Assembly (NCBI RefSeq): GCF_004010195.1
Contig: NC_057718.1
Coordinates: forward strand, 82,678,792-82,720,426
DNA length: 41,635 bases
Reading direction: 5' to 3'
Source of the DNA: Chiloscyllium plagiosum
Lineage: Eukaryota
The stretch's first letter is position 1. The number at the start of each line of letters is the position of its first letter. This document shows, piece by piece, positions 786 to 34,714 of this stretch. The notes beneath the pieces were generated by a model that worked only from the letters and a program-made list of their open reading frames with translations, was not told the DNA's origin and made no database searches. The position numbers and the translations under genes are program-made.

Positions 786-1216
786 AAATTTTAGTTTTCT
801 GAAGCAAAATCAGTCACCCCATGAAAAAGGACCAAAAATAATTCAGGTGCAAGACCAGGAGACATTGCTACATTGTGGGCTAATGCAGCAGCTACTTTGC
901 AATGCAGCAAAATTCAAACAACTGAATTGGGTTTGGGTTCCTTCAAATTAAACCATGTGTACCTTCTATGCCCTGTCTGGATTTTTTTGTGTCATCTTCA
1001 AACTTAGCGAGAGTACTTTCATTTTTTTCAATCAAATCATTAATATATATTGTAACTAAGTATGGCCCAGCACTAATCCCTGTGTCATTCTATTAGCTAC
1101 AAATTGCCATGTTGAAAATGCCACTCTCATTCCTACATTTGGTCTTTTCTTAATTAGAGCTGAAAATGTGTAGCTGGAAAAGCACAGCAGGTCAGGCAGC
1201 ATCCAAGGAGCAGGAG

Positions 1217-1251
1217 AATCGACGTTTCGGGCATGAGCCCTTCTTCAGGAA
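1217..1251 (-). ncRNA. Minimal hammerhead ribozyme motif, intact core
   Basis: Reverse complement is UUC-CUGAAGA-A-GGGC-UCAU-GCCC-GAAA-CGUC-GAUU: CUGANGA box, 4-bp stem II, GAAA box and GUC triplet. Confidence 0.7.
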
Positions 1252-1256
1252 AGGAG

Positions 1257-1291
1257 AATCGACGTTTCGGGCATGAGCTCTTCTTCAGGAA
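1257..1291 (-). ncRNA. Second tandem hammerhead motif (one stem II mismatch)
   Basis: Reverse complement is CUGAAGA-A-GAGC-UCAU-GCCC-GAAA-CGUC, 40 nt from the first copy. Confidence 0.55.
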
Positions 1292-1450
1292 TTGCTGCCT
1301 GACCTGCTGCGCTTTTCCAGCAACACATTTTCAGCTGCTCCTTGGCTGCTGCCTGACCTGCTGCGCTTTTCCAGCAACACATTTTCAGCCATGATCTCCA
1401 GCATCTGCAGTCCTCACTTTCTTTTCTTAATTAGCCTATCCTTTATGCTA

Positions 1451-1577
1451 GGAGAAAGTGAGGACTGCAGATGCTGGAGATCAGAACTGAAAATGTGTTG
1501 CTGGAAAAGCGCAGCAGGTCAGGCAGCATCCAAGGAGCAGGAGAATCGACATTTCGGGATTAAGCCCTTCTTCAGGA
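1451..1577 (-). mobile_element. Short PLE-terminal unit (~127 bp) with decayed hammerhead
   Basis: Mostly the reverse complement of 19978-20070, extended to the CTCACTTTCTCC end; 13-bp TSD ATCCTTTATGCTA at 1438-1450 and 1578-1590. Confidence 0.85.
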
Positions 1578-1691
1578 ATCCTTTATGCTAATATATAACT
1601 TCCAACACTACGGGCACATATCTTACAAAGCAGGCTAACTTGCAGTACTTGCTCAAATACCTTGTGGACATCCAAATATCTTACATCAACT

Positions 1692-3872
1692 GGGGCTTTT
1701 TTAGTGCAGTGGTAGTGTCCCTATCTTTGAGCCAGAGTAGCCCAGGTTCAAGTCCAACCTGCTCCAGAGGTGAGTTACAACAGCTGCCTCATTGAGTAAA
1801 GTAACAGCTTGACATAATCATACTTTACAACCATTGTTCCATCTCTCAGTATTTCATGTCCCACCCAGCAGGGCATCTGCACAGTAGAGGGAGTTGGCCT
1901 GTGTTTGTTCAAATTTGATTTCGGACTCATGAAGTCTCATGGCATCTGATCAAACACGAGCAAAGAAATCTCCTAATTACCGTTCACCGCTTGGAGGAAG
2001 ACTGAGGATGGCAAGGGCACAGATGGTATTGTGGTTGGGGACTTCAATATCAATCACTAAAACTGGCTCAGTAACACCACTACTTCCAGAACTAGTCAAG
2101 TCGAGAAGGATATATCTGCCAGAATCGGTTTGCAGCAGGCAGTGAGGGAGTCTAAAAGAGGGATAAAACTACAAGATATTTCCCTTGTTGATCTATCTGT
2201 CTCAGATGCAAGTGCCCATGATATAATCAAAGGAGTGACAACCATACAGTCCTAGTGAAGGCGAAGATCCCATGCTGCTCAATACTACTACTGTGTTAAA
2301 TGAAAGAACCGTGAAGTGCTTTGGGTCATCAGTGGCAGCAGAGTTGTATCCAACTATAATCTGTAACCCCATAGCTTGCTATTTCCTTCACTCTATCATT
2401 ACCATCAAAGCAAGAGATTGACCCTGGTTCAATGAAGAGTGCAGGAGGGCATGCCAGGAGCAGTACTAGGCACACCTAAACATAAAATGTCAACATGAAG
2501 TTACAACACGGCATGCCAAACAGTGGAAGCAGGAAGTGATGAACAATGATTTCACAATCAATGGATCAGACCAAAGCAGTCTTGCCATGTCAGTAAAAAA
2601 TGGATTGTGACGGACAATTAAGTAACTAGCAGGAGGAGGAGTCCTCACTATCTTTAATGATGGGGGAGCCCAGTGCATCAGTGAAAACATACAGCTGAAG
2701 TGTCTGCAACTGCCTTCAGCCAGAAGTGCCAAGTGTGTCTAATCTCAGCTTCCTCCTGAGGACCCAACATCACAGATGCCAATATGCAGCCAAATCAATT
2801 CATTCCATGTGATAAAGAGAAATGGCTAAAGGCACTGGATACTGCAAAAAACTGACAATTTCAAAACTGATTGAAAGCCTAACCAAATTGGTCCATTACA
2901 GTTACAACACTGTCATCTATCCTATAATGTGTAAAATTGCTCAGGTACGTCCCATCTATCAAAAACAGGGCAAATTCAACCCAGCCAATCTCCGCCCAAC
3001 GGCTTTTTGATTTTAAGGAAAGCGTTTGAACGTCAATAGTGCATTTAAACCATACTTACCAATTAAAAACCCTACTCACTGACATTCAGTTTAAGATCCA
3101 TGAGAGCCATTTGGCCTCAGTATTGCTGGCCAGAGGCAGTGGTGGAGGCTAGTACAATTACAGCATTTAAAAAGGCATTTGGATCGGTATATGAATAGGA
3201 AGGGTTTAGAGGGATATGGGTCAAGTGCTGACAAATGGGATTAGATTAGATTAGGATATCTGGTTGGCATGGACAAGTTGGACCGAAGGGTCTGCTTCCA
3301 TACTGTACATCACTATGACTCTGTAGTCCAAACATGGACAAAACAGCTGAACACAAGAGGTGAGGTAGGATTGACTGCCCTTGATGTTAAGAGTGTATTT
3401 AGCCAAGTCCTGGCAAAACTAGAGTCAATGGGAATCAAGAGGAAAACTCTCCATTAGTTGGAATCATACCTGAGACAATTGAAAGTTGTGTTTGTTGGAG
3501 ATGAATCACCTCAATCATTCAGTTCAAAATAATCTATTGAGAGTTCATGTACCAACTTAAATGTTCACTCCCTCCACTACTGACACATCCTGACAGCAGA
3601 GTGTACCATATCCAAGATGTACTCCAGCAACTCACCAAAGCCGCTGTTTCAGCACCTTCCTAACACTAGATATTTACGTTGGAAGGACAAGTGTAACACC
3701 AGTGTTCCCTCACCATTCTTGGTTTAAAATTCTTGAATTCTCTGCTGAACCATATTGTGGGAGTACCAGATTGACTGCAATGGTTCAAGAAGGCAACTCA
3801 CCATCACTTTTTCGAGGGCAATTAGGGATGGGAAATAAATGTTAGTCTCACCAATGCCTATATCCCATTAAA
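1692..3872 (+). mobile_element. Degenerate, internally deleted EN-RT LINE (CR1/L2-like) preceded by a tRNA-like head; related to 12082-15230
   Basis: A-box-like TAGTGCAGTGG (~1702) and B-box-like GGTTCAAGTCC (~1745); EN remnant TTGGGGACTTCAAT (GDFN, ~2035); RT remnant CKIAQVRPIYQKQGKFNPANLRP (2822-3010 ORF); 3' tail GGGCAATTAGGGATGGGAAATAAATG at ~3816. Confidence 0.7.
3128..3322 (+). mobile_element. CR1 3' end nested in the older LINE
   Basis: Matches the 6545-6738 CR1 terminus; ends in CTATGACTCT. Confidence 0.8.
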
Positions 3873-4254
3873 GTACTTACAAAATGGTAATGATTGCATC
3901 AAATAGGTAAAGACCAAATAACCTGTCCTAACTTTCATTGGCAACACCCTCACCCTCATCTTTAACATCCTGGAAGTTAATCAGAAATGGAACTGATGGG
4001 GCATATCATCAACGTTGTTCAAAAGAAGCAGGGTAATGATTGTCGTAATTGTGACAAGTGGCTTCTCTCCTGACTCCTTTTTATGCCTTATTACTTCCTT
4101 TCAGGCAGGAGTGTGATGGAACACTCACTTGGTCAAATGCATCTATAAACAATTTATGTTTATGTAGTGCTTTTAACAGAAGGAAAAAAGTCCCAATGTG
4201 CCTAACACAAGAAACACCACACAGCCCAGGGGAGAACAATCCACTTAATTGGTA

Positions 4255-4486
4255 ACACAAACAGAAATTGCTGGAAAAGCTCAACAGGTCTGGCAACATC
4301 AGTTTAGATAAATCAAAGGTTAACATTTTGGTTGAGTGACCCTTCCTCAGAAGATTCTGAGGAAGGGTCACTCGACCAGCGACATTAACTCTGATTTCTC
4401 TCTCTACAAATGTTGTAAAACCTGCTGAGCTTTTCCGGCATTTTCTGTTTTATTTCTGATATACAGCATTCAGAGTTCTTTCGGTT
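4255..4486. mobile_element. Inverted pair of an older PLE-terminal unit family with degenerate hammerhead
   Basis: Perfect 19-bp inverted arms at 4334-4352 and 4355-4373 containing CTGAGGAAGGGTC; 15-bp TSD TCCACTTAATTGGTA at 4240-4254 and 4487-4501. Confidence 0.75.
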
Positions 4487-4679
4487 TCCACTTAATTGGT
4501 ATCATTGCTACGGGACCCAATTTCCAAACAGTGCATCGCCAATGTGTAGGCTGCTCTAAACTCTATTTACATGATGCAGTGTTGAAACTCGCTAAGTTTA
4601 TTTGGTGACCAGCAACTTGCTTTGTTTCCAATAGAACACCTTCAATTCCCTCACTAATAAAGAGTTTCCACTCTTTTAG

Positions 4680-4942
4680 AAGGGTTGGAGGGTTGTTTTT
4701 CAGACTGGAGGCCTGTGACCAGTGGAGTTCCACAAGGATTGGTGCTGGGTCCACTACCTTTCATCATTTATTATAAATGATTGGAATGTGAGCATAAGAG
4801 GCATATTTAGTAGGTTTGCAGATCGCACCAAAATTGTAGATTTAGTGGACACAAAGAAGGTTACCTCAGATTGCATTGGGATCTTGATCAGATGGCCCAG
4901 TGGGCTGAGAAGTGGCAGATGGAGTTTTATTTAGATAAATAG
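4680..4942 (+). mobile_element. CR1 ORF2 RT fragment
   Basis: Closely similar to 5681-5946 (SDWRPVTSGVPQG...SRFAD). Confidence 0.8.
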
Positions 4943-5506
4943 AGCAATGTGTCTGACAAAATTCAGAGGATATTTCATAGTAACACCCTTCATGCTGGAA
5001 GTTAACAGTACTTTAACACATCAAAATTTAGCCCTTCCTGTCCTGTTTCGTGAATACAAAGTGTGAATTCTGGGCTGCTCCCACAAATAAAATATAATAA
5101 AATTCTCCAAACAAAAGCAGAGGAGTACTGTACTGATGTATGTCAGTGCCTTTTTGGCATGCTGCTGAGGTAAGTTCTCAGTGTATCAAATGAAGGTGTC
5201 TACCTGCATGTGTTACAATAACTGATGACACTGCCAAATTATTTTACCCATCTGGTTAAGGACCATTGACATCTTTGTGTAAAGTAGATGAAGTTTGTGA
5301 CCCTTCTAAGGGAATAAAGATCCCACAATCTTGAACAAGCAAACTAAACTTTACCGTACAATGTTAGTAAAGTGAAAAATTTGTGTATATACAAACGTAT
5401 AAAATTGGTACTCTAATATTCAGCATTAACATAATGTATAGGTGAACATCCAAAGAGGTCATTAATTCGCTGATGTGGCCAAGACAGATTTCACAGATTT
5501 CTCAGC

Positions 5507-5648
5507 AACTGATCCGTCCCAGAAAAGAGTGGAAGTACGGGTCACCAGATCTCATTAAAACTTCAAGTTCTTTCACATGGGATTTCAAATCTTCATTTTT
5601 GAAAATCTAGTATTGGAATGCTTTCAAAGGCCACTCCATATGGGAATA
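5507..5648. repeat. Unclassified repeat, copy 1 left part (continues at 6739 after the CR1 insertion)
   Basis: Aligns by eye with 7808-7950 (CAACTGATCCGTCC...AGATCTCATTAAAACTTCAA...GCCACTCCA). Confidence 0.6.
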
Positions 5649-5649
5649 T

Positions 5650-6738
5650 TGGCTATAGAACTATCTCAAAGGTAGAAGACAGAGGGTGGTGGTGGAGGGT
5701 TGTTTTTCAGACTGGAGGCCTGTGACCAGTGGAGTGTCACAAGGATCGGTTCTGGGTCCACTACCTTTCATCATTTATACAAATGATTTGGATACGAGCA
5801 TAAGTGGTACAGTTAGTAAGTTTGCAGATGACATCAAAATTGGAGGTGTAGTGGACAGCGAAGAAGGTTATCTCAGATTACAATGGGATCTTGATCAGAT
5901 GGGCCAATAGGCTGAGAAATGGCAGATGGAGTTTTATTTAGATAAATGTGAGATGCCGCATTTTGGGAAAGCAAATGTTAGCAGGACTTATATACTTAAT
6001 GGGAAGGTCCTAGAGAGTATTGCTGAACAAAGTGATCTTGGAGTGCAGGTTCATAGCTCCTTGAAAGTGGAGTCGCAGGTAGATAGGATAGTGAAGAAGG
6101 CATTTGGTATGCTTTCCTTTATTAGTCAGAGTATTGAGTACAGGAGTTGGGAGGTCATGTTGCGGCTGTACAGGACATTGGTTAGGCCACTGTTGGAATA
6201 TTGCGTGCAATTCTAGTCACCTTCCTATCGGAAAGATGTTGTGAAACCTGAAAGGATTCAGAAAAGATTTACAAGGATGTTGCCAGGGTTGGAGGATTTG
6301 AGCTGTAGGGAGAGGTTGAATAGGCTAGGGCTGTTTTCCCTGGAGCATCGGAATCTGAGGGGTGACCTTATAGAGGTTTATAAAATCATAAGGGACATGG
6401 ATAGGATAAATAGACAAAGTCTTTTCCCTGGGGTCGGGGAGTCCAGAACTAGAGAGCATAGGTTTAGGGTGAGTGGGGAAAGATATAAAAGAGTCCTAAA
6501 GGGCAACTTTTTCACACAGAGGGTGGTACATGTATGGAATAAGCTGCCAGAGGAAGTGGTGGAGGGTGGTACAATTGAACATTTAAGAGGCATCAGGATG
6601 GGTATATGAATAGGAAGGGTTTGGAGGGATATGGGCCGGGTGCTGGCAGGTGGGACTAGATTGGGTTGAGATATCTGGCCGGCATGGACGGGTTGGACCC
6701 CAGGGTCTGCTTCCATGCTGTACATCTCTATGACTCTA
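5650..6738 (+). mobile_element. 5'-truncated CR1 LINE (ORF2 RT C-terminal half and 3' UTR), with premature stops
   Basis: ORFs 5686-5910 (SGVSQGSVLGP, SKFADD), 5926-6216 (LYRTLVRPLLEYCVQF) and 6241-6609 (RGDLIEVYKI, FFTQRVVHVWNKLP); CTATGACT tail. Confidence 0.92.
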
Positions 6739-7665: not shown

Positions 7666-7807
7666 AAGTTATGGACCATTACATTGGGACTGTATCCTCC
7701 AGCAATATTGTCATACCTTGGGTTAATAATTACCAGTAATTTGCTCTTTGATGCTGAGCTCCCTAGGCTGTAATTGTCATGTCAATGCTGAATCAATCCA
7801 GTGTGGC

Positions 7808-10970: not shown

Positions 10971-11124
10971 CAAAAGTGAGGACTGCAGATGCTGGAGATT
11001 AGAGTCAAAAAGTGTGGTGCTGGAGAGTTGATGAAACATTTCGAGCTTATGCAACATTGACTCTCCTGCTCCTTGGATGCTGACTGATTGGCTGAGCTTT
11101 TCCAGCACCACATTTTTTGATTCT
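10971..11124. mobile_element. Older inverted/rearranged PLE-terminal unit
   Basis: Begins AAAGTGAGGACTGCAGATGCTGGAG; the right part (CTTTTCCAGCACCACATTTTTTGA) is inverted relative to the left. Confidence 0.65.
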
Positions 11125-11568: not shown

Positions 11569-11696
11569 GAGAAAGTGAGGACTGCAGATGCTGGAGATCA
11601 GAGCTGAAAAATGTGTTGCTGGAAAAGCACAGCAGGTCAGGCAGCATCCAAGGAGCAGGAGAATCGACGGTTTGGGCATAAGCCCTTCTTCAGGAA
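11569..11696 (-). mobile_element. Short PLE-terminal unit with mutated hammerhead (GAAA box lost)
   Basis: Same unit as 1451-1577; TSD TCAGACTGA at 11560-11568 and 11701-11709, with 4 nt of filler. Confidence 0.85.
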
Positions 11697-12081
11697 CTTC
11701 TCAGACTGATCATGGCTGAGTCCTTGAGCAGCGTAGCTGTGTGGCCCTGAGCAATGATTGCAACAGACCCTGACTGATGGTCATGCAACTCCTAGATTTT
11801 CTTCCGCAACTCCCTGCACCAGGCTGACCAGGACCACCCCAAGTAGTCAAAGCCCCTGTTCTGCTTGAAGCCTGTGCAGTGTGTGGTGCTTATGCCACTA
11901 GCAGGTGATGCGCTGACGTGGCACGGTGCCCTCCAGCAACATGTCCATCCTTTGACTGATCATTGCTGACAACGATGGCGAGCTGTCTGGCTTTGCAAGA
12001 GAGAAGTAGTTAACCCATTAGCACTTGCTGAGGGGTCAAGTGCAAAGGCAGGGGATGCTGTGAGACACTACCTGAGTGAGA

Positions 12082-15254: not shown

Positions 15255-15370
15255 AGGGCTTATGCCCAAAACGTCGATTCTCCTGTTCCCTGGATGCTGC
15301 CTGACCTGCTGCGCTCCAGCAACACATTTCCAGCTCTGATCTCCAGCATCTGCAGACCTCACTTTCTCCT
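15255..15370 (+). mobile_element. Short PLE-terminal unit, truncated inside the hammerhead
   Basis: AGGGCTTATGCCCAAAACGTCGATTCTCC...CTCACTTTCTCCT; TSD AAGAGTTGA at 15246-15254 and 15373-15381. Confidence 0.85.
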
Positions 15371-16008
15371 CAAAGAGTTGAGGATCCCTGATCTGTAGTC
15401 TAGCCCAGTGTCCATCCCTATGCGCAAAGTTTCCTGGCAGTGGCCTTCTAATGAAAAGTGTTGGCATGCTCCAATCGGCAGCATTGAAGTGCAGAACTTT
15501 AGTGTGAGATGTGCCATGAGGACGTGGTGAGGCTGGCACATATCAGATGCCAATGTCTGTGAATGGAGGGTGTATGCGGTTGTGTGCATTGAGATGTTGT
15601 TGCTGGCTTTTCAAGATGGTGGTCTGGAAGATCAAACAGTATTCTGGGGTTGCGAGGTAACTGCATTGACTTTGATATCAAAAATTGTTGCCGTCTAGTT
15701 TCTGTCTGGTGGGTGTGAGAATGGGATACTGTATACCAATGAGATGGAATGAAATAACAATGAGGTTGGTAATGAGTGATAATCCATGGTAGGACTCCTC
15801 TCAGCCCATATTAGTGAGAATCTCATCCTATTCAAACACTTGGTTAGAAAATGGGACTGTTTTGTTTTGACATTGAGAAGGTCCTCACTGGACACCTCAC
15901 CCAATTTCCCATGGGCCACATTGTTCATATTTTAAAAAGATTCCACCCAATATAAAGTTTTAGTTATGAGAAATAAAATCAGAATGATGAATGATAAAAT
16001 ATATTTTT

Positions 16009-17241: not shown

Positions 17242-17960
17242 GAGTCATAGAGTTGTACAGCATGAAAACAGACCCTTCAGTCCAACTTGTCCATGCTGAC
17301 CAGATACCCATCTAGATGCCTTTTAAAAGTTGTAATTGTACCAACCAACCTTCACCACTTCCTCTGGCAGCTCATTCCATACATGCACCACCCTCTGTGT
17401 GAAAATGTTGCCCCTTAGATCCCTTTCCACTCCCACCTTAAACCATGCCCTCTAGTTCCGGACTCCCCCAACCCCAGGGAAAATACCTTGTGTATTTACC
17501 CATCCATGTCCCTCATGATTTTATAAACCTCTATAATGTCAGACCTCAGCCTCCTTTGCTCCATGGAAAACAGCCTCAGTCTATTTAGCTTCTCCCGATA
17601 GCTCAAACCCTCCAACGCCCTTGTAAATCTTTTCTGAACACTTTCAAGTTTCACAACATCCTTCCTGTAGGAGAGAGACCAGAATTGCACACAATATTCC
17701 ACAAGTGGCCTAACCAATGACCTGTACAGCCACAACATGACCTCCCAACTCTTATACTCTATGCTCTGACCAATAAAGAAAAGCATATCTAACGCGTTCT
17801 TCACTATCCTATCCTATCTACCTGTGACTCCACTTTCAAGGAACAATGAACCTGTACTCCAAGGTGTCTTTGTTCAGCAACATTCCCTAGGACCTTACCA
17901 TTAAGTGTATAAATCCTGCCCTGATTTACCTTTCCAAAATCCTCGCATTTATGTAAATTA
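17242..17960 (-). mobile_element. 5'-truncated CR1 LINE
   Basis: ORF 17496-17804 (LYRSLVRPLVEYCVQFWS...SDIIEVYKIM); CR1 tail at the left end. Confidence 0.88.
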
Positions 17961-18565: not shown

Positions 18566-19533
18566 GTAGGTAATTCAGCCCTTCAAGCCTGATCCCCCAT
18601 TCAGTCAGATCAGGATTGAATTGTTTATAATCCACATTCCACATTTCTTTCTATTGCTGATAGCCTTTCACTCCCTTGCCACACAACGACTCCACCTCCA
18701 CAACCTTCTGGGGCACAGAGTTCCAAAGGTGTTCAAGTCTCAGAGAAAAACAATTCCCTCGAGTCCGTCCTGAAAGAGCAAAGCCTGATACTAAAACAGT
18801 GCCCCGAGTTCTCGACTCACCCACAGGTGTAAACATCCTTTCTCTATCCACCTTGTCAAGACCATTAAACATGGTTATAGACTTCAATCAAATGACCCCT
18901 CGTCCTTCTGAACTTCAGTGGAAACAAGCCTCGCCTTTCAATCTTTCCTTCTAAAAGCATCAGCTCACTCCAGATATCAAGGTAATAAACCACCTCTGAT
19001 CTACGTCCAATGTTTTCTCATCCTTTCTTATAAAGGTGACCAAAACTAAACAAAGTACTAAAGACGTGGTCTCACTGATGCCCACTGAAGTGTAACTTTT
19101 ATGTTAAATTCCTCTAGTAATGAAGGTTAGCATCCCATGAGCCTTCTTGATTACATGATGTACCTACATACTAATCTTTGGTGACTCATGCACTAGAACA
19201 ACAAGCTGGGGTTGCACCTCAGAATTCTGAAATTGTTCTCCATTTAACATAGAGTCTGCCTTTTTATTCTTCCTGCCAAAAATGAACAACTTTACATTTT
19301 CTCACATTATACCCCATTTAACAGATTTTTGACCACTTAGCTATATTGTATATCATCTACACAACATACTTTCCAACCTAACTTTGTTTTATCTACAGAT
19401 GTAGCCACCATGCCTTTAATCTCCTCACCTAAGTCATTGCTAAAAGTTGAGTATCCCAGCATAGACCACTGTCACATCTGTCAAGCTGAACAAGTCAAGC
19501 TCACTGTTTTCTGCCAAAAAATTGGCAGAAAAC

Positions 19534-20070
19534 GCTACTTGCGGAGCGTTTCAGAGAACACCTCTGGGACACCCGGACCAACCAACCCAACCACCCTGTA
19601 GCTCAACATTTCAATTCCCCCTCCCACTCCACCAAGGATATGCAGGTCTTTGGACTCCTCCATCGTCAGACCACAACAAAACGACGGTTGGAGGAAGAAC
19701 GCCTCATCTTCCGGCTAGGAACCCTCCAACCACAAGGGATGAACTCGGATTTCACCAGTTTCCTCATTTCCCCTCCCCCCACCCTGTCTCAGTCAAATCC
19801 ATCAAATTCAGCACCGCCTTCCTAACCTGAGATCTTCTTCCCGACCTCTCCGCCCCCACCCCAGTCTGACCTATCACCCTCACCTTGACCTCTTTCCACC
19901 TATCACATTTCCGACGCCCCTCCCCCAAGTCCCTCCTCCCTACCTTTTATCTTAGCCTGCTGGACAATCTTTCCCCATTCCTGAAGAAGGGCTTATGCCC
20001 GAAACGTCGATTCTCCTGTTCCCTGGATGCTGCCTGACCTGCTGCGCTTTTCCAGCAACACATTTCCAGC
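19534..20070 (+). mobile_element. 5'-truncated Penelope-like element: GIY-YIG endonuclease C-terminus plus hammerhead-bearing 3' region
   Basis: Open frame 19535-19825 reads LLAERFREHLWDTRTNQPNHPVAQHFNSPSH...RRLEEERLIFRLGTLQPQGMN (PLE motifs RFxEH, VAxHF, TLxPxGxN); 19978-20070 is the same sequence as the short units. Confidence 0.88.
19977..20012 (+). ncRNA. Minimal type I hammerhead ribozyme motif, sense to the PLE ORF
   Basis: AUUC-CUGAAGA(19981-87)-A-GGGC-UUAU-GCCC-GAAA(20001-04)-CGUC-GAUU; predicted cleavage after C20008; stem III reduced to palindromic ACGU. Confidence 0.75.
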
Positions 20071-20276
20071 AATTTTTTTATCAACCCTAGTAAATTACTC
20101 CCTACACCATGAGCTTGAGTTTTGCTCAATTTATGTGGAATCTTGCCAATTGTCTCCTGAAAATCCAAGTACAATACATCAATAGGCTCCTCTTTACCCA
20201 CAGTGTATGTCACTCCTTCAAAGGATTCCAATAACTTGGTCAAACAGCATTTTCCTTTTACGAAACCTTACCGACT

Positions 20277-21462: not shown

Positions 21463-22008
21463 ACAGCAGGTAATGAACTTGAAAGACCCCATGTAGACAA
21501 CGAGCAAAACTAATGTCATTTACAGAATATCTTGCAAGAACTGTAACAAATACTACATTGGACAAACAGGCAGAAAACTAGCCACCAGGATAAATGAACA
21601 TCAACTAGTCACAAAACAACATGACCCTCTCTCACTAGTATCCTTACATATGGATGAGGAAGGACAACACTTCGACTGGGACAACACATTCATCCTGGGA
21701 CAAGCCAAACAGAGACTCGGACGAGAATTCCTAGAAGCCTGGCATTACAACCCGAACTCTATCAACAAACACATTGATTTGGATCCCATTTACCACCTCC
21801 TGAGAAAAAGAACAGGAAATGACACCATCATAGGAAATGACATCACTACAGGAAATGACATCACCAACCCAAGGAAAACCAAACATATAAACAGAAAGCA
21901 AGAAACACCAGCAGTGCTTCATCCGGAGGCTCACTGAAGATGCTACCTAATATGGTAACGAAACATCTGAAAATGAACCTTGCAGCTCAGCGAGCAAACC
22001 TACATCCA
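21463..22008 (+). mobile_element. 5'-truncated Penelope-like element, second family, with apparently complete GIY-YIG domain
   Basis: Open frame 21497-21937 reads NVIYRISCKNCNKYYIGQTGRKLATRINEH...REFLEAWH...SINKH; 12-bp TSD GGCATTCTCAAA at 21451-21462 and 22009-22020. Confidence 0.9.
21931..21970 (+). ncRNA. Hammerhead ribozyme motif (second PLE family)
   Basis: UCA-CUGAAGA-U-GCUACC-UAAUAU-GGUAAC-GAAA-CAUC-UGA; stem I is UCA/UGA, stem II pairs at 5 of 6 positions, AUC triplet. Confidence 0.65.
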
Positions 22009-22070
22009 GGCATTCTCAAATTGTACACTGGCTGCTTCACTGTCAAACTCAGAGATGTTATAAGCTGCAC

Positions 22071-24519: not shown

Positions 24520-24692
24520 GGCGATTTGGAGATGCCGGTGTTGGACTGGGGTGTACAAAGTTAAAAATCACATAACACCAGGTTATAGTCCAACAGGTTT
24601 AATTGGAAGCACACTAGCTCCGAAAGCTAGTGTGCTTCCAATTAAACCTGTTGGACTATAATCTGGTGTTGTGTGATTTTTAACTTTGTACA
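24520..24692. mobile_element. Palindromic insertion, probably inverted termini of another PLE family
   Basis: 68-bp inverted arms at 24552-24619 and 24625-24692 with 2 mismatches; centre GCTCCGAAAGCTA resembles a hammerhead 3' half; direct repeat TACATCTT at 24512-24519 and 24689-24696. Confidence 0.65.
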
Positions 24693-24741
24693 TCTTTGTG
24701 AGTAGTAGTTCAAGATGTTTGAATGACCTCCAGGGCTATGG

Positions 24742-25490
24742 TGTTATGGACCAGACCAAACCCCCTCAAAATATTTCAAAAAGATAACCTAGGCCATAAC
24801 ATTTTCTCATTTTAAAGGCAAGTGGCAGGCATTCTGGATGTAATTTGATCAATCAAACCATGAGATTTGAAGGAAAGTGCATTTTATTTATATACTTAGA
24901 TAAACTACAACAAAAGAAAGAAGAACTTGGAATAACTTAATTCTATTGGAAAGCTTACAGAATAATAGCTTTGCGATTTTTGGGATGTTATATAGTTATG
25001 GTGACAAAATGCCTGAAAACAAACCTTCCAGCTCAGCAAGCTAACTTACATACTTAGAATAATAGATTATTAACTACTACTAAGTAACTGTTCCAATATA
25101 ATAAAATCCCTTAAAAAAACCCTTGACAAAGGCAAATTCAGTAAAATGGACTGACTCACATGTAACATCAGCAGCAGGAGGAAAAACATCAAAAGAAAAC
25201 TCAGAGAGAGAGAGAGAGTAGCAGAGAGAGTAGCAGGGAGAGATGTATTGCAGCTTCCAACAAGCTTCAAGACTCGAGCACTTGCTACTGAAAAATGACA
25301 ACTAAAAATCTGGTTCTATGGGAGCTTGACCCCACCCATTCAGGCTGCTTCTATTATTCCAACTTTAAAAAAAAAACAAGACCCCACAAGCTATTTACTT
25401 TATGGACTTCAATAGACAGCTTGCTACCTCTGCCTTAAAACCACTCTCAAAAGAAAATACAGAATAACATATACCTCTTAAAGCTGTTGT
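24742..25490. mobile_element. Probable LTR relic containing a small PLE-terminal remnant (~24980-25053)
   Basis: Starts TGTTATGGACCAGACC; 24982-25053 resembles 21938-22007 and is flanked by an AGAATAATAG repeat; internal (AG)n. Confidence 0.4.
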
Positions 25491-25564
25491 AATGTGAGAA
25501 TGAATTGAGATGAGCTTTGATTTTGCAGGCTTGGATATAGGTGAATGTCTACTTACTACCACTA

Positions 25565-25730
25565 GGTAAAAACAAGGACTGCAGATGCTGGAAACCAGAA
25601 TCTAGATTAGGGTGGTGCTGGAAAAGCACAGCAGGTCAGACAGCATCCGAGGAGCAGGAAAATCGACGTTACGGGCAAAAGCCCTTCATCAGGAATAGAG
25701 GCAGGGTGCCTGCAGAATGGAGAGATAAAT
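25565..25730 (-). mobile_element. Short PLE-terminal unit, variant subfamily (CUGAUGA core, GAAA mutated to GUAA)
   Basis: GGACTGCAGATGCTGG...AATCGACGTTACGGGCAAAAGCCCTTCATCAGGAA; 16-bp TSD with 1 mismatch at 25548-25563 and 25737-25752. Confidence 0.8.
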
Positions 25731-27361
25731 TTTGCCTCTACTTACTGCCACTGACAACTAGAGCTATTATCCCACAGCTTAGCCAGATTTGTGCTTTGCC
25801 TGGAGCTCCTCAAACAGGGAGAAGTGAGTTCCAAAGATGAGTCATCAAGTTCAAAATGTCAACTCTGATTCTCTCACCACTGATGCTGCCATATTTACTG
25901 AATTTCACCAGTACTTCATGTTTTTATTATCCATTCAGTAGAAGTGAATTCCATAAAATCACAGACTATTCCAAATCATTCATTGAAAAGTCACACCCTA
26001 TTGGCCAAGAGCTAACAGATAAGCTGAGAAATGTATGAGTGACTCAAGAAAAGTGCTACATGTGGATGCGTGAGGGAAAGAATTGTATTGCTTTCTTTGC
26101 AATTAGAGAATGATTTCTCAGTCGATACTGGAAAGCTCCCAGTTACACTTATCTTTGCACATCCTATGTTCAGAGATCTTCCTAAATTACCATGTGAAGC
26201 TGTATACATACATAGATGTTATTGAGAACAGAAGAAAATAATGAGGTTAAATGCAGGACAATGAATGAAATTCAGAAGTACCTTGAGAAAGGCAGAGAGT
26301 ACAGTGCCAGTGAAATGTAGTGGTCACATTCAAAAGCAAGCAACTCCTTATGATGTCAGCCATTTGTTGTGACCAGCACCAAGGGATCAATGATCACCAT
26401 TAAGCCTGGTTTGCAAATCATCACATAAAATGTGTAATTCTTCAGAGCACTGAAAAAACCATTCATTAACACTGAATCTGATTCCAACATTGACATCTCA
26501 GATAACGAACACATTTTTTTTCGACAATATCCCACAAGTAGGAGAAAGCATCCACCATACAGATGTGGTTATGTTCTTTGTTTGAAAATAAATCTTCCAT
26601 CTCATTTGATGTGACTGAGTGCATTGATAAATCTATAGAAAATTATGCATAAGTAATAGTGTAACTGGTAAAAATTGAATGTTCAGGCTATGTCTAAATT
26701 TATTCTTTACACTTTTTTGAACAAACCAATAAAACACCCACGCCTCTCAGTTATGAAGAAAGGGATGGATATAATGCATTGGAAATTGCATTTATTTTAC
26801 TTAAGGTTGCCATATACATATGTCTCAATAGGAAGTTTGGAAAGAGAATAAGGAATCTTCTTTCAGCAGAACATGCTTAGTTCTGCTTCTTATTGGATCT
26901 TTCTAAGAATTTCAGTTGGTAAGTACTTTACACAGGATTTGACAAGCTGCACCAACTGCCTGATGCCAGCAGTGCTTTCAGATAGTTGATTCCCACCCCA
27001 CCCATTACTGAAACTTACACTGTGACTGAGATAGTCAGCACCTGCTCACCTCACCTACTGAAACTAACTACAGTCTGCATTGTGATTGAGATCGCTTGAC
27101 TTCTGATGTAAAACCTTCCTACTTTGAGAAACTGCTCTTGTGAGCAACTTCTCTGTGTAATGGAAGAAGCTGGATTCTTTTATCATGATATCTCTCAGCC
27201 CTATTTCCAATGTGACATCGAACTTTCACGTTTTGACAGGACCATTTAACAAATCTGCTTGTAACTCCCCAAAGAAGGAAGTGATGTTTGTGGCAATGTT
27301 ACAGGGCCTTAGCAAGGCCACACCTCGAGTATTGTGTGCAGTATTGGTCTCCTTATCTTGT

Positions 27362-27840
27362 TTTTAGTCATTCATTCACAGGATGTGAGCATCACTGGCT
27401 GGGCCAGCATTTATTGCCCATTGCTAATTACCCAGAGGGCAGTTAAGAGTCAATCACATTGCTGTGGGTCTAGAGTCACATGTAGGAGAAAGTGAGGTCT
27501 GCAGATGCTGGAGATCAGAGCTGAAAATGTGTTGCTGGAAAAGCGCAGCAGGTCAGGCAGCATCCAGGGAACAGGAGAATCGACGTTTCGGGCATAAGCC
27601 CTTCTTCAGGAAGTCACATGTAGGCCAGACCAGCGGATTTCCATCCCTAAAGGACGTTAGTGAACCAGCTGGGATTTTCTAACAATTGACATGCTTATCA
27701 TTATACTCTTATTTCCAGATTATTATTGAATTCAAATTCCATTATATGCCACAGGGGGGATTTGAACCCAGGTCCCCAGATCATTATCTAGGTTTCTGAA
27801 TTAATAGTCTAGCGATAATAGCACTAGACCATCACCTACC
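27362..27840 (-). mobile_element. tRNA-headed SINE, same family as 23931-24272
   Basis: Reverse complement of the same head, body and tail; split at 27487-27611. Confidence 0.78.
27485..27612 (-). mobile_element. Short PLE-terminal unit with intact hammerhead (27578-27612)
   Basis: Reverse complement contains CUGAAGAAGGGCUUAUGCCCGAAACGUC; TSD AGTCACATGTAGG at 27474-27486 and 27612-27624. Confidence 0.88.
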
Positions 27841-28972
27841 ATAATCACCTACCTTCCTATCTGAGGATGGATATTCTGGCTATGGAGGGTGTGCAGCAAA
27901 GTTTTATCTGACTGATTCCTGGGATGGCAGGACTGATGTATTGGTTAGGATGACAGTCACAGGAATTTAGAAGATTGAAGGGGTTCTCATAGAAACCTAT
28001 AAAATTCTAGCATGACTATACAGAGTAAATACAGGAAGGATGTTCCCGATGATGGGGGAGTTCTGAACCAGGGGCCATAATCTAAGGATGTGGAGCAGGC
28101 CATTTCGGACTTGTCTGAGGAAAGATTTCTTCACCTTAAGAATAGTAGGGCAATGGAATTCTCTGCCCCAAAAAGCAGTTGAGGCCAAAACTTTGAATAT
28201 TTTCAAGAAGAGAATAGATATTGTTCTTAGGGCTAAGGGATCAAAGGGTATGCAGGCACAACAGGGAATAGGGTGCTGATTAAGATGATCAGCCATGATC
28301 ATATTCAATGATGGAACAGGATCAATGGGCCAAATGACCTATTCCTGTTACTATTTTTCTGCATTTCTAATGTACTTTTAGCTGCAAGAGAGCTCCAGTA
28401 ATCGCGTTATCTAAAGAGCCAAGCACCTAACCTATAGCTAAAATCATTTAGAATAGTTTATTGTTATTGTAAGTTGTTAGGGTGTACACTGGAGGGTTTG
28501 TGCAGGTACTGTGGTGAATTCCTGAATTTGGCAGGGGGTATTGCTGTATCGGCACAGGAAAGGCAGAGGATTTAGTGACCTGACTGCACAAAGGTGGTAA
28601 CTGCAGTTCTGGTGCATCTTGGTCAGCAGCATGCCAGGGAGATGGAGCAGAGGCGGCAAAGAGGGAAGGTCCTGCACTTGGCCCTCTGCAAATTTGAATC
28701 TAGATTCTATACTGTTGGAGAGTGCCAGGAGGGTATCTACCAGGCCAGGGAATGCCCTGAGAATCACAGTATGTGCATTCATCAACACTATCTGTATGCC
28801 TTATCTGAGTCCCCTATGACTTTGCCCTCCAGTGACTTTCCCTGATGTGCTGCAGTCCACTCATGTCCAGTGTCTCACAGCATACAGATCCCAAATCTAC
28901 AACAGGATCTATGGCACATGTAATGGTGGTATCTCAACTGCTCGCTATTAGTGTCAGACCATCAGTGGTATG

Positions 28973-29010
28973 CTCTCTCTCTCTCCCTCTCTCTCTCTCT
29001 CTCTCGCTCT
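28973..29010. repeat. (CT)n microsatellite
   Basis: Imperfect CT run seen directly. Confidence 0.85.
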
Positions 29011-29092
29011 GCCCTTCTTTGGGATGTGTAGGGGCCATTTACCAGGGTGTTGTTGGGAATGGAGGGTTTGAGTTATTGGGAGAGGTTGGATA

Positions 29093-29790
29093 GAGCATAG
29101 AACAATATAGCACAGTACAGGCCCTTTGGCCCTCGATGTTGTGCTGACCTTTTATCCTACACTAAGATCAAATTAACCCACATTATAGAGGTTTACAAAA
29201 TTATGAGGGGCATGGATAGGGTAAATAGACAAAGTCTGTTCCCTGGGGTTGGGGAGTCCAGAACTAGAGGCCATAGGTTTAGGGTGAGAGGGGAAAGATA
29301 TAAAAGAGACCTACGGGGCAACATTTTCACGCAGAGGGTGGTACGTGTATAGAATAAGCTGCCAGAGGAAATGGTGGAGGCTGGTACAATTGCAACATTT
29401 AAGAGGCATTTGGATGGGTATATGAATAGGAAGGTTTTGGAGGGATATGGGCTGGGTGCTGGCAGCTGGGACTAGATTGGGTTGGGATATCTGGTCAGCA
29501 TGGACAAGTTGGACCGAAGGGTCTGTTTCCATGCTGTACATCTCTATGACTCTATGACTCTATACCCTATATTTTACTATCATCCATGTGCCTATCCAAG
29601 AGTTGCTGAAATGTCCCTAATGTATCTGATTCTACTACCAGTGCATTCCACGTACCCACCACTCTGTGTAAAGAACCTACCTCTGACATCACCCCTGAAC
29701 CTTCCTCCAATTACTTTAAAATTATGCCCCCTCGTGAAAGACATTTCCACCCCGGGAAAAAGTCTCTCACACTCTATCTACTTGTACACA
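29093..29790 (-). mobile_element. CR1-like 3' fragment interrupted by a younger plus-strand CR1
   Basis: CATAGAACAATATAGCACAGTACAGGCCCTTTGG at the left end; TGCATTCCACGTACCCACCACTCTGTGTAAAGAA (rc of FFTQ-VV-WN) at ~29640. Confidence 0.6.
29184..29562 (+). mobile_element. Young CR1 3' end
   Basis: Very similar to 6368-6738; (CTATGACT)2 tail. Confidence 0.9.
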
Positions 29791-29804
29791 CACGATGGGG
29801 ACGT

Positions 29805-30180
29805 TTTCCACTGGAGTGTAGGAGATTGAGATGTGATCTTATAGAGGTTTATAAAATCATAATGTGTATAGATAAGGTGATTGGCAGGTCTCTTTTCCCT
29901 AGTGTGGGGGATTTCAACACTAGGGAGTATATTTCTAAAGATAGAGGAGAAGGATTTTAAAAAGACATGAGGATGGTTCATGTTTGGAATGAATTTTCAG
30001 AGGAAGTGTGGATATGGGTACAATTACATTTAAAAGACATTTAGATAACTACATGAATAAGAAATGTTTGGAGATATATGGACTAAGTACAGGGAGGTGG
30101 GATTAGGGTTTAGTTTGGAAGTATGTTCGGCATGGATTGGTTGGACTAAAGGGTCTGTTTCTGTGTGTATGACTCTAGGA
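29805..30180 (+). mobile_element. CR1 3' end
   Basis: FPLECRRLRCDLIEVYKII; tail TATGACTCT. Confidence 0.8.
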
Positions 30181-30442
30181 CTGTATTTCTACTGTATGCC
30201 TTAGGAGATACAGCATCCTTTCCCCTCACTGCTTCTGCCCTGATCCTTTCCATTGTGCACCACCTTGTCCGGCAAGAGAGAGTGGGCAGAATGCTGGTGA
30301 TCGTGTAACACTCTGTTATGGTGATGTGCCTGTCTGAGCTGGTGTAACCACTAGGAACTGTGTGTCAGGCTGGCAGTGTCAGAGTGAGCATGAGGACGAG
30401 GTGGAGCAATATTTTCTTTCATACTGAGTTTTGAATCCGAGA

Positions 30443-30762
30443 GATTACTAGATTACTTACAGTGTGGAAACAGGCCCTTCGGCCCAACAAGTCCACACCA
30501 ACCCGCCGAAGCGTAACCCACCCAGACCCATTCCCCTACATTTACCCCTTCACCTAACACTACGGGCAATTTAGCATGGCCAATTCACCTGACCTGCACA
30601 TTTTTTGGATTGTGGGAGGAAACCGGAGCACCCGGAGGAAACCCACGCAGACATGGGGAGAACGTGCAAACTCCACACAGTCAGTCACCTGAGGCGGGAA
30701 TTGAACCCGGGTCTCTGGTGCTGTGAGGCAACAGTGCTAACCATTGTGCCACCGTGCCACCC
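30443..30762 (-). mobile_element. Well-preserved HE1-like V-SINE
   Basis: Minus strand GGGTGGCACGGTGGCACAATGGTTAGCAC (A box) ... CCCGGGTTCAATTCCCGCC (B box), V-domain-like core, CR1-type tail GGGCCGAAGGGCCTGTTTCCACACTGT. Confidence 0.88.
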
Positions 30763-31794
30763 AGAGACTGGTGGCCGGTTGGGATTTGAGTGTTGAGCAG
30801 TGGGAGAGGTCAGTGGTATGGTGGGAAGGAGATATTGACCACCCATCATCAAGCCACTTGTGGCACTCTAATGGTGAGGCTGTTGAAACCTCTTAGCTGC
30901 CATCATGCGGTTGGACCCGCAATGTCAGTCCCGTTCCCACCATCTTTAATTGGACAACAAGCCAGGAGGCAGCCAAAGTCTTTGCTGAGCTAGTCCCATT
31001 ACCAGTAAGTGTAGGCTCGGGATCACTAGTCCAGCCTGACCTCAGGTTCCCAAAGCCAGTGGGGAAAATCCAAGTCCTGAACATCCTGGGTCAGGTCTGC
31101 AAATATTGCCTGACGCTGTTGTCGTTATATCATTTCTGACAACAATTGCACACTTCACAGCTGGATCAACCAGCCTTGTGTTTGCACTCTAAACATTAAA
31201 GGACTATTGTTTCAGGTTTGTCGTTGGTTGCTGTTCACTCCTAATTGCTAACTGAAACGTTCCTGCAAGTGTCACATGACACAAAGCTGCACATAACCCA
31301 GGTTTTTCTTTCATGAAATATTCCCTTAGCATTTTAACAGAAACAACAGACTGATCAGTAAAGGCAATCCTGCTCAAACCCTGAGTATCATTTGGAATTC
31401 AAATGTAAATAGAAGCTGCCATAGACATAAAGGTGGGTTTATTGTAACAAAGGTTTGTAATTATATATTCCATGATATCTTTCAGTATTCCTTCAGTTTG
31501 TCATAGCAATTATTAACGCAATCTTTCTTTAACTATGTGGATCAGATTTCAGTGCTGTAGTTGGGTGTGACTGCTGTTTTAATCAGTGGCTGTAGCTGTC
31601 CTACTAGGAGAAGCCAATGGAGGGAGCCAAGGCCAGGTTGAGGCCAAAGTAAATAAGTTGCATTATTTTTGTACTTTCCTTGTGGTATCAGGAGGAGAGG
31701 AGCTTCAGGGTCCACAAGCTAAGGGTATCCATGTCCTAAAATTCCCATGTCCAAATATATCAGTATAAATGATTTTCTTGATTAAGTTGAAAAC

Positions 31795-32550
31795 AGTCAT
31801 AGAGTTATACAGCACAGAAACAACCCTTTGGTTCAATATCGGAGAAAGTGAGAACTGCAGATGCTGGAGATCAGAGCTGAAAAATGCGTTGCTGGAAAAG
31901 CGCAGCAGGTCAGGCAGCATCCAAGGAACAGGAGAATCAATGTTTCAGGCATGAGCCCTTTTTCAGGGCTTATGCCCGAAACGTTGATTCTCCTGTTCCT
32001 TGGATGCTGCCTGACCTGCTGCGCTTTTCCAGCAACGCATTTTTCAGCTTCGGTTCAATATGTCCATGCTGCCAGATATCCAAAACTGATCTAGTCTCAT
32101 TTGCCAGCAGTTAGCCCATATCCGTATAAATCCTTCCTATTGATATACCCTAAGCAGCATAGACAAATTGGGTTGAAGGGCCTGTTTCTATGCTGTAAAC
32201 CTCAATGAGTCTATGACCCATCCAGATGCCTTTTAAATGTTGTAATTTTACCTGCCTCCCCTACCCCCTCTGGCAGCTTGTTCCATACATGCACCAATCT
32301 CTGAGTGATAAAGTTTCCCCTCTGGTCTTTTTTAAAATCTTTCCCCTCTCACCTTAAACCTATGCCCTGTAGTTGTGGGCTCTCATATCCTGGGGAAAAG
32401 ACCTTGACTATTCACCCTATCCATGCTTGTCATGGTTTCTAAACCTCTATAAAGTCATCCTACAGCTTCCAACACTCCAGGGGAAACAGTCCCAGCTTAT
32501 TCAGCCTCAAACCTTTCAACCCTGGCAAAACCCTTGTGAATCTCTTTCTG
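31795..32550 (-). mobile_element. CR1 3' fragment with nested insertions
   Basis: Starts AGTCATAGAGTTATACAGCAC (rc of tail); resumes after 32050; a short plus-strand CR1 tail lies at ~32155-32217. Confidence 0.7.
31841..32049. mobile_element. Inverted pair of short PLE-terminal units
   Basis: Arms ~31875-31959 and ~31966-32049 are reverse complements; TSD GGTTCAATAT at 31830-31839 and 32052-32061. Confidence 0.88.
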
Positions 32551-32676
32551 AATAGAAGAAAGGAAAAATGGTGTTGCATTTGTCAAACATTTTTGATGAC
32601 TTCAGCTAATGAAGTATTTTTGAAGTGAAGCCACTGTTGTCAAACACGAAATATTAAGAAGGTTGAGGCTGTGTCT

Positions 32677-33370
32677 TTGGTCTTCACCACAAACTCTTTC
32701 CTCTGACAACTATTCTATCTGTCACCCTGCAACTGTCTAAAGATACGACAGAATCATTCGAAACCTTCATGTTGTGTTTAACCCTAAGTTGATCTTAAGA
32801 CCGAATATCACTCCATTAGCAGGTCTAATTCCTGCCACCACCCTAACATTTCCGAACTCCAATCCAACCCTCAACTCAAAGTTACTGAAATCCTATCCAT
32901 GCCTTTCTTATTTCTAAGCATGACAATTTTCCAGTTCTAACTAACCTTGTATTGGTCCCATTCACTCATCACTCTTATCCTTATTGAAGTTTACGAGCTC
33001 CTGGTTAAAGCTATGGGTCAATTTGTAAACCCTCAATCTTGTTCTAATATCTCTCAACAGCTTCTTAGACCCTCCACACATCTACAACTTCCTTCTGACT
33101 GCAAGCTCTTAAGGTCTCTGCACTCTTCCAATTCTGGAATCCTGGGCACCCCATATTCTAACTGCTTCACCATTGGACACTCAGCTGCCCTATCTTTAAA
33201 CTGGGGAGGGCCTTTCTTAAATTTCTTGGCCTTTCTACCTCTCCATTTTCATAAAAATCAGTTCCTTGACCAAGTTTTTGTTTTCTACCCTGATAGCTCT
33301 CTCTGTAACTCTGTGTCAATTCTTTTTCAATTATAATATTCTTGTAAGTGCCTTTGGATGCTTTGCTATT
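32677..33370 (+). mobile_element. Very old L2-like LINE 3' fragment
   Basis: Pyrimidine-rich decayed sequence resembling L2 ORF2 3' region (weak, by eye); its first ~215 bp recur at 33524-34065. Confidence 0.35.
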
Positions 33371-33625
33371 TGAAAGGTAAGTGGTCATTCGTGTAGTTTT
33401 ACACAACTCAGCTAATTTGCACACCAAGATTCCACAAAGAGCAAAGAGATAGATAATGTGTTTGAGTGATGTTCATTTGAGGTAGAAATATTAATCAGGA
33501 CACTGGAAGAATAATAGTGCTATTTGGTCCTCACCACAAACTCTATTCCCTGACAATTACTCTATCTGTCTCCCTGCAATGGTTTGAAGTTACGACAGAT
33601 CATTTGAGACCTTGATGTTGTCTTT

Positions 33626-33926
33626 AGATTAAATTCCGTACAGTATTGAAACAGGTCCTTCAGCCCAACAAGTCCACACTGACCCTCTGAAGAGTAACCC
33701 GCCCAGATCCATTCTCCTGCCCTATATTTACCCCTGACTAATGCACCTAACACTATGGGCAATTTAGCATGGCCAATCCACCTGACCTACACATCTTTGG
33801 ATTGTGGGAGGAAACCCATGTAGACACAGGGAGAATGTGCAAACTCCACACTGACAGTTGCCCAAGGCAGGAGTCGAACTGGGGTCCCTGGCACTGTGAG
33901 GCTAGCAGTGAGTTACCATGCCACCC
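33626..33926 (-). mobile_element. HE1-like V-SINE
   Basis: Same head, core and tail as 30443-30762. Confidence 0.82.
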
Positions 33927-34509
33927 ATCAACTCTAAGATGATTCTTTGGGTTTAACCCTAAGATAATCTTAAGACCGACTATCACTCCATCAGCAAATC
34001 TAATTCCTTCTACTACCCTAACATTTCCTAATTCCAATCCTACCTCAATTTTTTGTTACTGAAATGTCTTGAGCTTTCTACCTCTCTCTCTCTCTCTTTT
34101 ATATCTGAATGAGAGAACAGGCTATACCTCAGTTTCGTAGCTCATTCAAAAGACATCGAAATGCAGCACTCCCTCAGTACTGTGTTGGCGTGTTAGCTGG
34201 ATTATTCTGAAAATATGATCTGTCCTAACCAACCGTTTCTTTCTCAAATACTCAAAACACCTCCCTCAGCTTTTCCACTATCCTATAATCTTCAGCTTTT
34301 GAAAGCCTGAGCTTGGCAGCATTTAATCACCACTTCCTATTTACCTCCCCTTTGAGTTAATGTTATGAAACTTGATGCTATCAGCAGTACGCACCTCAGT
34401 AACTCATCAGTAACTCAGAAACAGCATCATAGAAGCATAGAACATACAGCTTTCCAACATGTAGCAATAACAGCAAGTATACACAAAGGTCCACTGGCAA
34501 AATGTGTGA

Positions 34510-34714
34510 CTGAAAATGTGTTGCTGGAAAAGCGCAGCAGGTCAGGCAGCATCCAGGGAACAGGAGAATCAACGTTTCGGGCATAAGCCCTTCTTCAGGC
34601 TTATGCCCGAAACGTCGATTCTCCTGTTCCCTGGATGCTGCCTGACCTGCTGCGCTTTTCCAGCAACACATTTTCAGCTCTGATCTCCAGCATCTGCAGA
34701 CCTCACTTTCTCCT
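34510..34714. mobile_element. Inverted pair of short PLE-terminal units; minus-strand hammerhead at ~34567-34599 with GUU triplet
   Basis: Arms 34510-34589 and 34598-34677 are near-perfect reverse complements; TSD TGTGTGACTG at 34503-34512 and 34720-34729. Confidence 0.88.

Follow-up and report, generated by a model that had tools for sequence, protein, structure and literature searches.

What fixes the point at which a short, ribozyme-bearing retroelement copy begins? The question is raised by a 41,635-nucleotide stretch of the Chiloscyllium plagiosum genome (assembly GCF_004010195.1, contig NC_057718.1, positions 82,678,792 to 82,720,426 of the forward strand), here called the window, in which short insertions carry the terminus of a Penelope-like element (PLE) with a minimal hammerhead motif. 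We found that most of these copies end on their 5' side at one place, 4–5 nt before the CUGA of the hammerhead core and 32 nt upstream of the predicted cut. The units are probably solo pseudo long terminal repeats (pLTRs) of an autonomous Neptune-type PLE, retrocopied by the element's own reverse transcriptase (RT)-endonuclease, and their 5' end would be that of the RNA. An earlier sequence-only reading had reported eight insertions of a ~130-bp unit, each with a target site duplication (TSD), and had ascribed their clustered 5' ends either to a discrete, retrozyme-like RNA or to a strong RT stop at the ribozyme fold. The observation is confirmed; the interpretation is partly supported.

The unit was read on one long copy, in which the following features lie:
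19535 to 20070, plus strand: 5'-truncated, tailless 3' end of a PLE (the long copy), located by tblastn, no TSD detected
Contents of the long copy: C-terminal part of a GIY-YIG domain (~19535–19790), pyrimidine-rich 3' untranslated region (UTR), hammerhead, first ~93 nt of the pLTR
19976 to 19977, plus strand: dominant 5' boundary of the short copies, from loose ends and a depth step in runs X1, X7 and X21
19977 to 20012, plus strand: minimal type-I hammerhead, from a descriptor scan

BLAST of the long copy against the window recovered all eight named insertions at the reported positions, and a TSD search found duplications of 9–16 bp around each of them; the identical search reached at least 9 bp in 5 of 300 random intervals. 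Together with an older ninth, inverted copy at 10973–11116, which had been overlooked, the insertions are:
1158 to 1424, no single strand: four-segment insertion, TSD 1143–1157/1420–1434 (15 bp)
1451 to 1579, minus strand: solo tailed unit starting at the boundary, stem II damaged, TSD 1438–1450/1578–1590 (13 bp)
10973 to 11116, no single strand: inverted copy from a related subfamily, older and decayed; its flanking repeat of 7 bp is no longer than chance would give
11569 to 11700, minus strand: solo tailed unit, boundary start after 4 extra bases, TSD 11560–11568/11701–11709 (9 bp)
15255 to 15372, plus strand: solo tailed unit starting just past the CUGA core, TSD 15246–15254/15373–15381 (9 bp)
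25564 to 25736, minus strand: tailed copy of a divergent subfamily with a CUGAUGA core (the 25565 copy), TSD 25548–25563/25737–25752 (16 bp, 1 mismatch)
27485 to 27612, minus strand: solo tailed unit, hammerhead intact, TSD 27474–27486/27612–27624 (13 bp)
31841 to 32049, no single strand: head-to-head palindrome of a tailed minus-strand arm and a tailless inverted arm, TSD 31826–31839/32048–32061 (14 bp, 1 mismatch)
34510 to 34721, no single strand: head-to-head palindrome of a tailless inverted arm and a tailed plus-strand arm, repeat 34498–34512/34715–34729 (15 bp, 1 mismatch), which overlaps the element ends in part

Solo units of the kind first described do exist, but three of the eight insertions (1158, 31841 and 34510) are inverted structures with a tailless arm, and the 25565 copy belongs to a different subfamily (24–31 differences in ~125 nt). 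The 1158 insertion consists of two inverted arms that reach the boundary and two forward arms, the last one tailed. A tail of ~35 nt is present on one arm in all eight insertions and absent from the inverted arms and from the long copy; the CTCACTTTCTCC end, too, is missing from the 19535–20070 copy. Since the long copy is tailless, the short units match it over only ~93 nt, and the supposed match to its 3' end stands for that part alone. The 27485 copy is identical to this long copy, which bears open reading frame (ORF) sequence, at 92 of 93 nt (BLAST). An optional tail of 30–40 nt at one end, an inverted pLTR copy (3/8) and TSDs (8/8) are traits of endonuclease-bearing (EN+) PLEs. Most of the short copies would have been dead on arrival and then decayed. 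Inside the 1158 insertion, a hammerhead tandem of 2 × 40 nt lies on the minus strand at 1212–1291, with a junction that is not at the cut. For cleavage in cis as a dimer it offers a natural candidate, and retrozyme screens that look for tandems might include it in their counts.

For 13 arms, the 5' start was located on the long copy, where CUGA begins at 19981. Seven start at 19977–19980, three at 19986–19990 and two at 20016–20028; the remaining arm, that of the 25565 copy, extends ~40 nt further upstream in sequence of its own subfamily. No arm among the 13 starts at 20009, the first base past the predicted cut. The clustering near CUGA and the retention of the half upstream of the cut, both noted in the sequence-only reading, are therefore borne out. 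A19977 stands in what we take to be an initiator-like context, YYANWYY. The palindrome centres at 31965 and 34598 have 2–3 nt of junction homology, and it is on this homology only that a fold-back there rests, as DNA folding energies gave no support for one. Elsewhere in the window, at 4259–4450, lies a decayed head-to-head palindrome of another, distant PLE family with a CUGAGGA core. Its arms meet 2–3 nt before the core, a geometry equal to that of the main family, and ATT stands at or adjoins the boundary in the main family, in the 25565 subfamily and in the 4259–4450 family.

The same boundary was seen beyond the window. Four public runs were aligned to 19500–20099, three of which gave data: X1, a contig set whose kind is not on record; X7, a contig set, probably of DNA; and X21, raw polyA single-cell RNA reads. 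The fourth, X22, gave 0 reads, which is no evidence on expression. Ratios are rough, since depth in contigs does not give a copy number and the RNA reads mirror host regions that are transcribed; loose ends are those of the 18 rows listed, with 1283 further rows not listed, and the counts for the contig runs are incomplete. Depth stepped up at the 19980 bin from 2.0M to 9.2M in X1, from 2.1M to 9.2M in X7 and from 334 to 1294 in X21 (maxima 14.6M, 13.8M and 2024), and at 19971–19975 it was 10–17% of the depth at 20019 in all three. In the raw reads of X21, depth over the unit was ~30 times that over the ORF. An older-subfamily base at 20058 was carried by 38% of the X21 reads; with all of these discounted, at most 23% run on upstream and ~77% or more stop.

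Among the loose ends listed, the best-supported 5' positions were 19976 and 19977 in X1, X7 and X21, followed by 19986 in X1 and X21. Agreement behind 19976/19977 was 0.31–0.51, as expected of unrelated flanks, and the 19977 consensus in the two contig runs is AT-rich. In X1 the 19986 consensus closes with bases that nearly match the CUGAUGA subfamily's boundary sequence, so this peak is probably the same boundary. A peak at 19535 (agreement 0.73–0.78, ORF continuing) marks the truncation point of the reference. On the 3' side, loose ends lie at 20061–20070 and run on into the tail (389 reads behind 20070, agreement 0.75). No peak was found at the cut site or 20009 among the 18 loose-end rows listed. 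Joints 20008 to 19977 (X1, X7) and 20065 to 20009 (X1), among the joints listed, were not counted as evidence of cleavage, since the kind of joint is unprinted, GATTC at 20009–20013 resembles the boundary sequence and a further 78 rows are not listed. We rejected a splice acceptor as the origin of the boundary: with one upstream exon in common, the loose ends would agree highly.

The motif at the boundary has the core CUGAAGA (19981–19987), a bulged A at 19988, a stem II of 4 bp with a UUAU loop (19989–20000) and GAAA at 20001–20004. C-G stands at 15.2/16.2 without a loop, so that a palindromic four-base stretch replaces helix III, and the cut is predicted after C20008; stem I has only 2 bp, followed by a U-U mismatch. 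The descriptor (CUGANGA/GAAA/NUH core, bulge after 9, G10.1-C11.1, palindromic 15.2-16.2) matched with 0 mismatches at 19981, 27609, 34598 and 1248. In the named arms the hammerhead is undamaged only at 27612, 1251 and 34599 (the last with a GUU triplet); the other arms said to bear one have changes in core or stem. With the core or stem II decayed in most window copies, nothing indicates that single copies are under selection.

A search of Rfam up to E=1 returned no hammerhead family; its 12 matches were 11 microRNA-family hairpins and one small nucleolar RNA, all below the gathering score. It is thus the descriptor, and no covariance model, that supports the motif. Energy folding predicted stem II and not the full hammerhead, and a two-molecule fold pairs the palindromic core in part. 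By eye, without a formal count, three families in the window retain the core, and their stems I and II differ but mostly pair; a further family, at 24552–24700, has G-C in place of C-G at 15.2/16.2. These are single, partly decayed copies. Minimal hammerheads of metazoan PLEs are described, in the accessible text of Cervera and de la Pena 2014 (PMC4209133), as mostly single motifs, probably from truncated PLEs, with low activity in vitro; such a motif would be expected to work only as a dimer.

What kind of element supplied the unit? The frame at 19532–19801 gave 4 matches among 126 candidates, with 87% identity to P0001 and 67% to P0002 (the latter over 85 amino acids by tblastn), and its closest protein relatives bear the source name Chiloscyllium punctatum. 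Taken alone, the GIY-YIG fragment of the window had no Pfam match. Its relatives hold RT motifs, a Cys-rich linker (visible in P0002–P0004) and GIY-YIG, with most scores near or below the Pfam cut-offs: GIY-YIG falls just under the cut-off in P0001 and P0002 and clears it in the more distant P0003, and RVT_1 is under it in P0002 and P0003. Through these relatives the EN+ order, RT followed by a C-terminal GIY-YIG, is found. A Cys linker between RT and endonuclease points to Neptune or Nematis (Craig 2021, as available), and the vertebrates sampled by Li 2026 (bioRxiv 10.64898/2026.07.22.740005, accessible part) gave only Neptune and Poseidon; from linker and clade survey, rather than from a tree, we infer that the parent was a Neptune-type PLE. 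The long copy had no TSD of at least 6 bp within 12 nt of its ends, and a short inverted repeat occupies 19505–19535 in the flank directly upstream. A 40-amino-acid open frame across unit and tail had no homologue among longer proteins in a weak search.

We propose that the short units arose as follows. RT would start inside the RNA at either of two nearby sites, leaving 3' ends with or without the ~35-nt tail. The template would be one uncut by the hammerhead, and most copies would end 4–5 nt 5' of its core; that the template was uncut and that copies end there is seen in the copies themselves. The boundary may then be where the RNA has its 5' end, probably at the start of an internal promoter, and priming in the transcript's own leader would yield only a run-off cDNA of 90–130 nt. 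Joined directly, this cDNA would form a solo unit, and fold-back or re-priming could produce palindromes and short tandems. To copy the ORF as well, priming would have to take place in the downstream member of a tandem, and the surplus of short copies would follow from this. Lying beyond the entire hammerhead, 32 nt upstream of the cut, the 5' end fits neither a cleavage product nor a stall at a helix, and the end of the template would be the simplest cause of a fixed 5' end.

Several elements of this route have been described elsewhere, in papers of which we cite the accessible text. An anole PLE has two internal RT start sites a tail apart (Frangieh 2024, PMC11167929), and the tailed and tailless 3' ends found here fit that scheme. 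Uncut RNA was its main substrate in vitro and hammerhead mutants still inserted; its RT requires RNA beyond the start sites (the first 172 nt of the ORF, with the start at 111–118; PMC11167929). Penelope of D. virilis has an internal promoter with its start within the pLTR, and PLEs have been described with a tail, with inversions, with 5' truncation and as solo pLTRs (PMC8557442, PMC3846280).

Other points weigh against the boundary being an RNA 5' end. The anole pLTR reaches well over 100 nt upstream of the hammerhead (PMC11167929, accessible text), and in D. virilis an intron lies between start and hammerhead, so the geometry of the boundary is not universal. Averaged over 19975–20019, the fall in depth is only ~4 times the upstream decay (4.3% versus 1.1% per nt), and the sharpness of the step rests on 20-nt bins and the top loose ends listed, a ranking that comes from listed rows only and undercounts the contig runs. 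No site of many molecule starts or ends was found among the places listed, X21 being a polyA single-cell library that cannot map starts, and a boundary is mimicked where a subfamily has another UTR. Motifs like the initiator abound in this sequence, with 10 YYANWYY sites in the 536-nt long copy. Finally, the window holds no full-length PLE copy, and the homologue search found no match to a tail continuing into an ORF.

A further reading takes the unit to be a self-propagating PLE 'SINE' (short interspersed element), with a capped Pol II start on stem I, a promoter in each solo copy and an uncut hammerhead whose fold acts as a signal to PLE proteins and not as a nuclease, re-mobilised in trans to very high copy number. 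We hold this for quite unlikely. The base before 19977 is G in the consensus of both contig runs and T in X21, and among the joints listed, all six that land on 19977/19978 carry inserted letters ending in G, three of which the template can explain; these Gs are a possible hint of capping.

How do other explanations of the boundary fare? One of them, which we consider unlikely, keeps the solo PLE retrocopies and lets the GIY-YIG endonuclease cut or resolve the integration intermediate at ATT, just before the hammerhead core. The anole PLE protein prefers 5'-ATT-3' near the ORF-pLTR junction (PMC11167929, accessible text), ATT stands at or beside the boundary in all three families named above, and Craig 2021, as far as available, credits endonuclease resolution for the tail and the inverted pLTRs. 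However, ATT occurs in only one of the eight printed TSDs and AAT in two more on the printed strand, so that no strong ATT preference is visible, and the in vitro preference belongs to another clade.

Decidedly doubtful, too, is a discrete, non-autonomous RNA of ~130 nt, SINE- or retrozyme-like, which PLE proteins would mobilise in trans after its transcription from solo copies. It would account for the fixed 5' end and for short copies far in excess of ORF-bearing ones in the reads, and the 40-nt hammerhead tandem of the 1158 copy suits it. Rotifer pLTRs in cis sufficed for mobilisation in trans, and Li 2026 proposes that retrozymes arise from PLE termini and reports monomers (both from accessible text). 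But the 3' ends are ragged and fall at two known PLE positions with no A-tail, the copies are mostly dispersed, and they belong to several subfamilies, the closest being the one at 92/93 nt to the ORF-bearing copy. The window contains no cut-to-cut tandem array, its sole tandem being the 2 × 40 nt one, and the hammerhead is minimal rather than canonical. If the shark element resembles that of the anole, solo copies would also lack the RNA beyond the RT start sites. The discrete retrozyme of the sequence-only reading is, on these grounds, unlikely.

A stall of RT or of second-strand synthesis at the hammerhead fold of a longer read-through RNA is highly improbable. The boundary lies at the 5' edge of stem I, and three of the 13 arms start at 19986–19990, the 5' base of stem II. 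RT moves 3' to 5' on the RNA, however, and a stop is expected on the 3' side of the helix; a stall would end copies at ~20000, 3' of stem II, whereas the main boundary at 19976–19977 is past the whole core, which leaves the proposed RT stop unsupported. The fold is weak, with prediction giving the hammerhead's 4-bp stem II and no more of it, and two of those three arms start at palindrome centres, which fold-back at 2–3 nt of homology may explain. That the step is mostly an alignment artefact, the pLTR being common to subfamilies and the upstream UTR not, is barely credible: the 25565 copy does behave so, and 38% of X21 reads carry the older base, but TSD-bounded window copies begin directly at the boundary, the AT-rich loose-end consensus of the contig runs has low agreement, and ~77% or more of reads still stop after correction.

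The window as a whole is non-coding DNA rich in retroelement fragments. At 24552–24700 lies a near-perfect palindrome of a third family, centred on the 3' half of a hammerhead, in which G-C replaces C-G at 15.2/16.2 with a CUA triplet; it also gave an Rfam microRNA-like hairpin below the gathering score. A second PLE type is represented at 21497–22010 by its 3' end, in which Pfam matched GIY-YIG and which has a UTR repeat of 18 bp and a hammerhead of its own at 21934; a short, decayed end of the same family occupies 24997–25051. By its C-terminal motif we take this second PLE to be Poseidon-like. On the minus strand, 428–746 is a fragment of the N-terminal region of a PLE RT (45% to P0003). 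Fragments of the 3' end of a LINE (long interspersed element) family, presumably CR1-like by motif, are found in both orientations at 5911–6609, 17496–17940, 29200–29960 and 32216–32438. A 25-bp satellite of ~175 copies with long open frames runs from 37260 to the window end at 41635, with an ATG-containing stretch before it (~37100–37180). Outside this genome, 19-mer matches in 114 metagenome, 75 prokaryote-genome and one viral locus were judged to be chance, because none of these 190 loci held the unit and the longest BLAST match was 44 nt at 84%; a gapped pattern of the unit had 0 matches in viral and metagenome contigs.

The formation of pLTRs and the role of the hammerhead are open questions in PLE biology (PMC8557442, PMC11167929, accessible text). 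Because the 5' boundary stands, genome-wide, 32 nt upstream of the predicted cut, the template that is integrated is normally an uncut one. Were the boundary a transcription start, then solo pLTRs, palindromes and the short tandems of the hammerhead, raw material in a proposed origin of retrozymes, would all have a simple source in it, and the genome itself would map the 5' end of PLE RNA, a prediction that is cheap and testable. The family is otherwise an ordinary PLE with known traits, and the sharp boundary is of moderate interest for its concrete prediction on the PLE transcript and the hammerhead role.

Compared with known systems, of which we rely on the accessible texts, the units share with metazoan non-LTR retrozymes (PMC7229834, Li 2026) a type I hammerhead, a non-coding unit, the link to PLE pLTRs and large TSDs. 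Those retrozymes form tandem arrays of 170–400-nt units with canonical hammerheads and abundant circular RNA; the shark units, in contrast, are ~130 nt long and dispersed, begin upstream of the cut, and have a hammerhead with no helix III and a 2-bp helix I in place of the canonical helix III and 6-bp helix I. With the minimal hammerheads of PMC4209133 they share a conserved core, an extra base between 9 and 10.1, G10.1-C11.1, palindromic 15.2-16.2, no helix III and mostly single, dispersed motifs; they differ in a stem II of 4 bp and a stem I of only 2 bp with a mismatch, and their cleavage is predicted only. With Poseidon of Anolis carolinensis (PMC11167929) they share two 3' end positions a tail apart and an uncut RNA template, but Poseidon is of another clade, its pLTR reaches far upstream of the hammerhead, and the accessible text does not discuss the 5' ends of genomic copies. 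In insertion shape they resemble the EN+ PLEs Neptune and Penelope/Poseidon (PMC8557442, PMC3846280), which also have TSDs, a tail on one arm only, a head-to-head inverted arm, solo terminal units, together with a C-terminal GIY-YIG upstream of the unit. We found no published statement that the 5' boundary is fixed at the hammerhead, in a search without Repbase, Dfam and most subscription papers. The type of element, its ribozyme and the shapes of its insertions are already known, and unlike the gradually truncated EN+ insertions most shark copies end at one point 4–5 nt before the core, a sharp 5' boundary that refines a known system.

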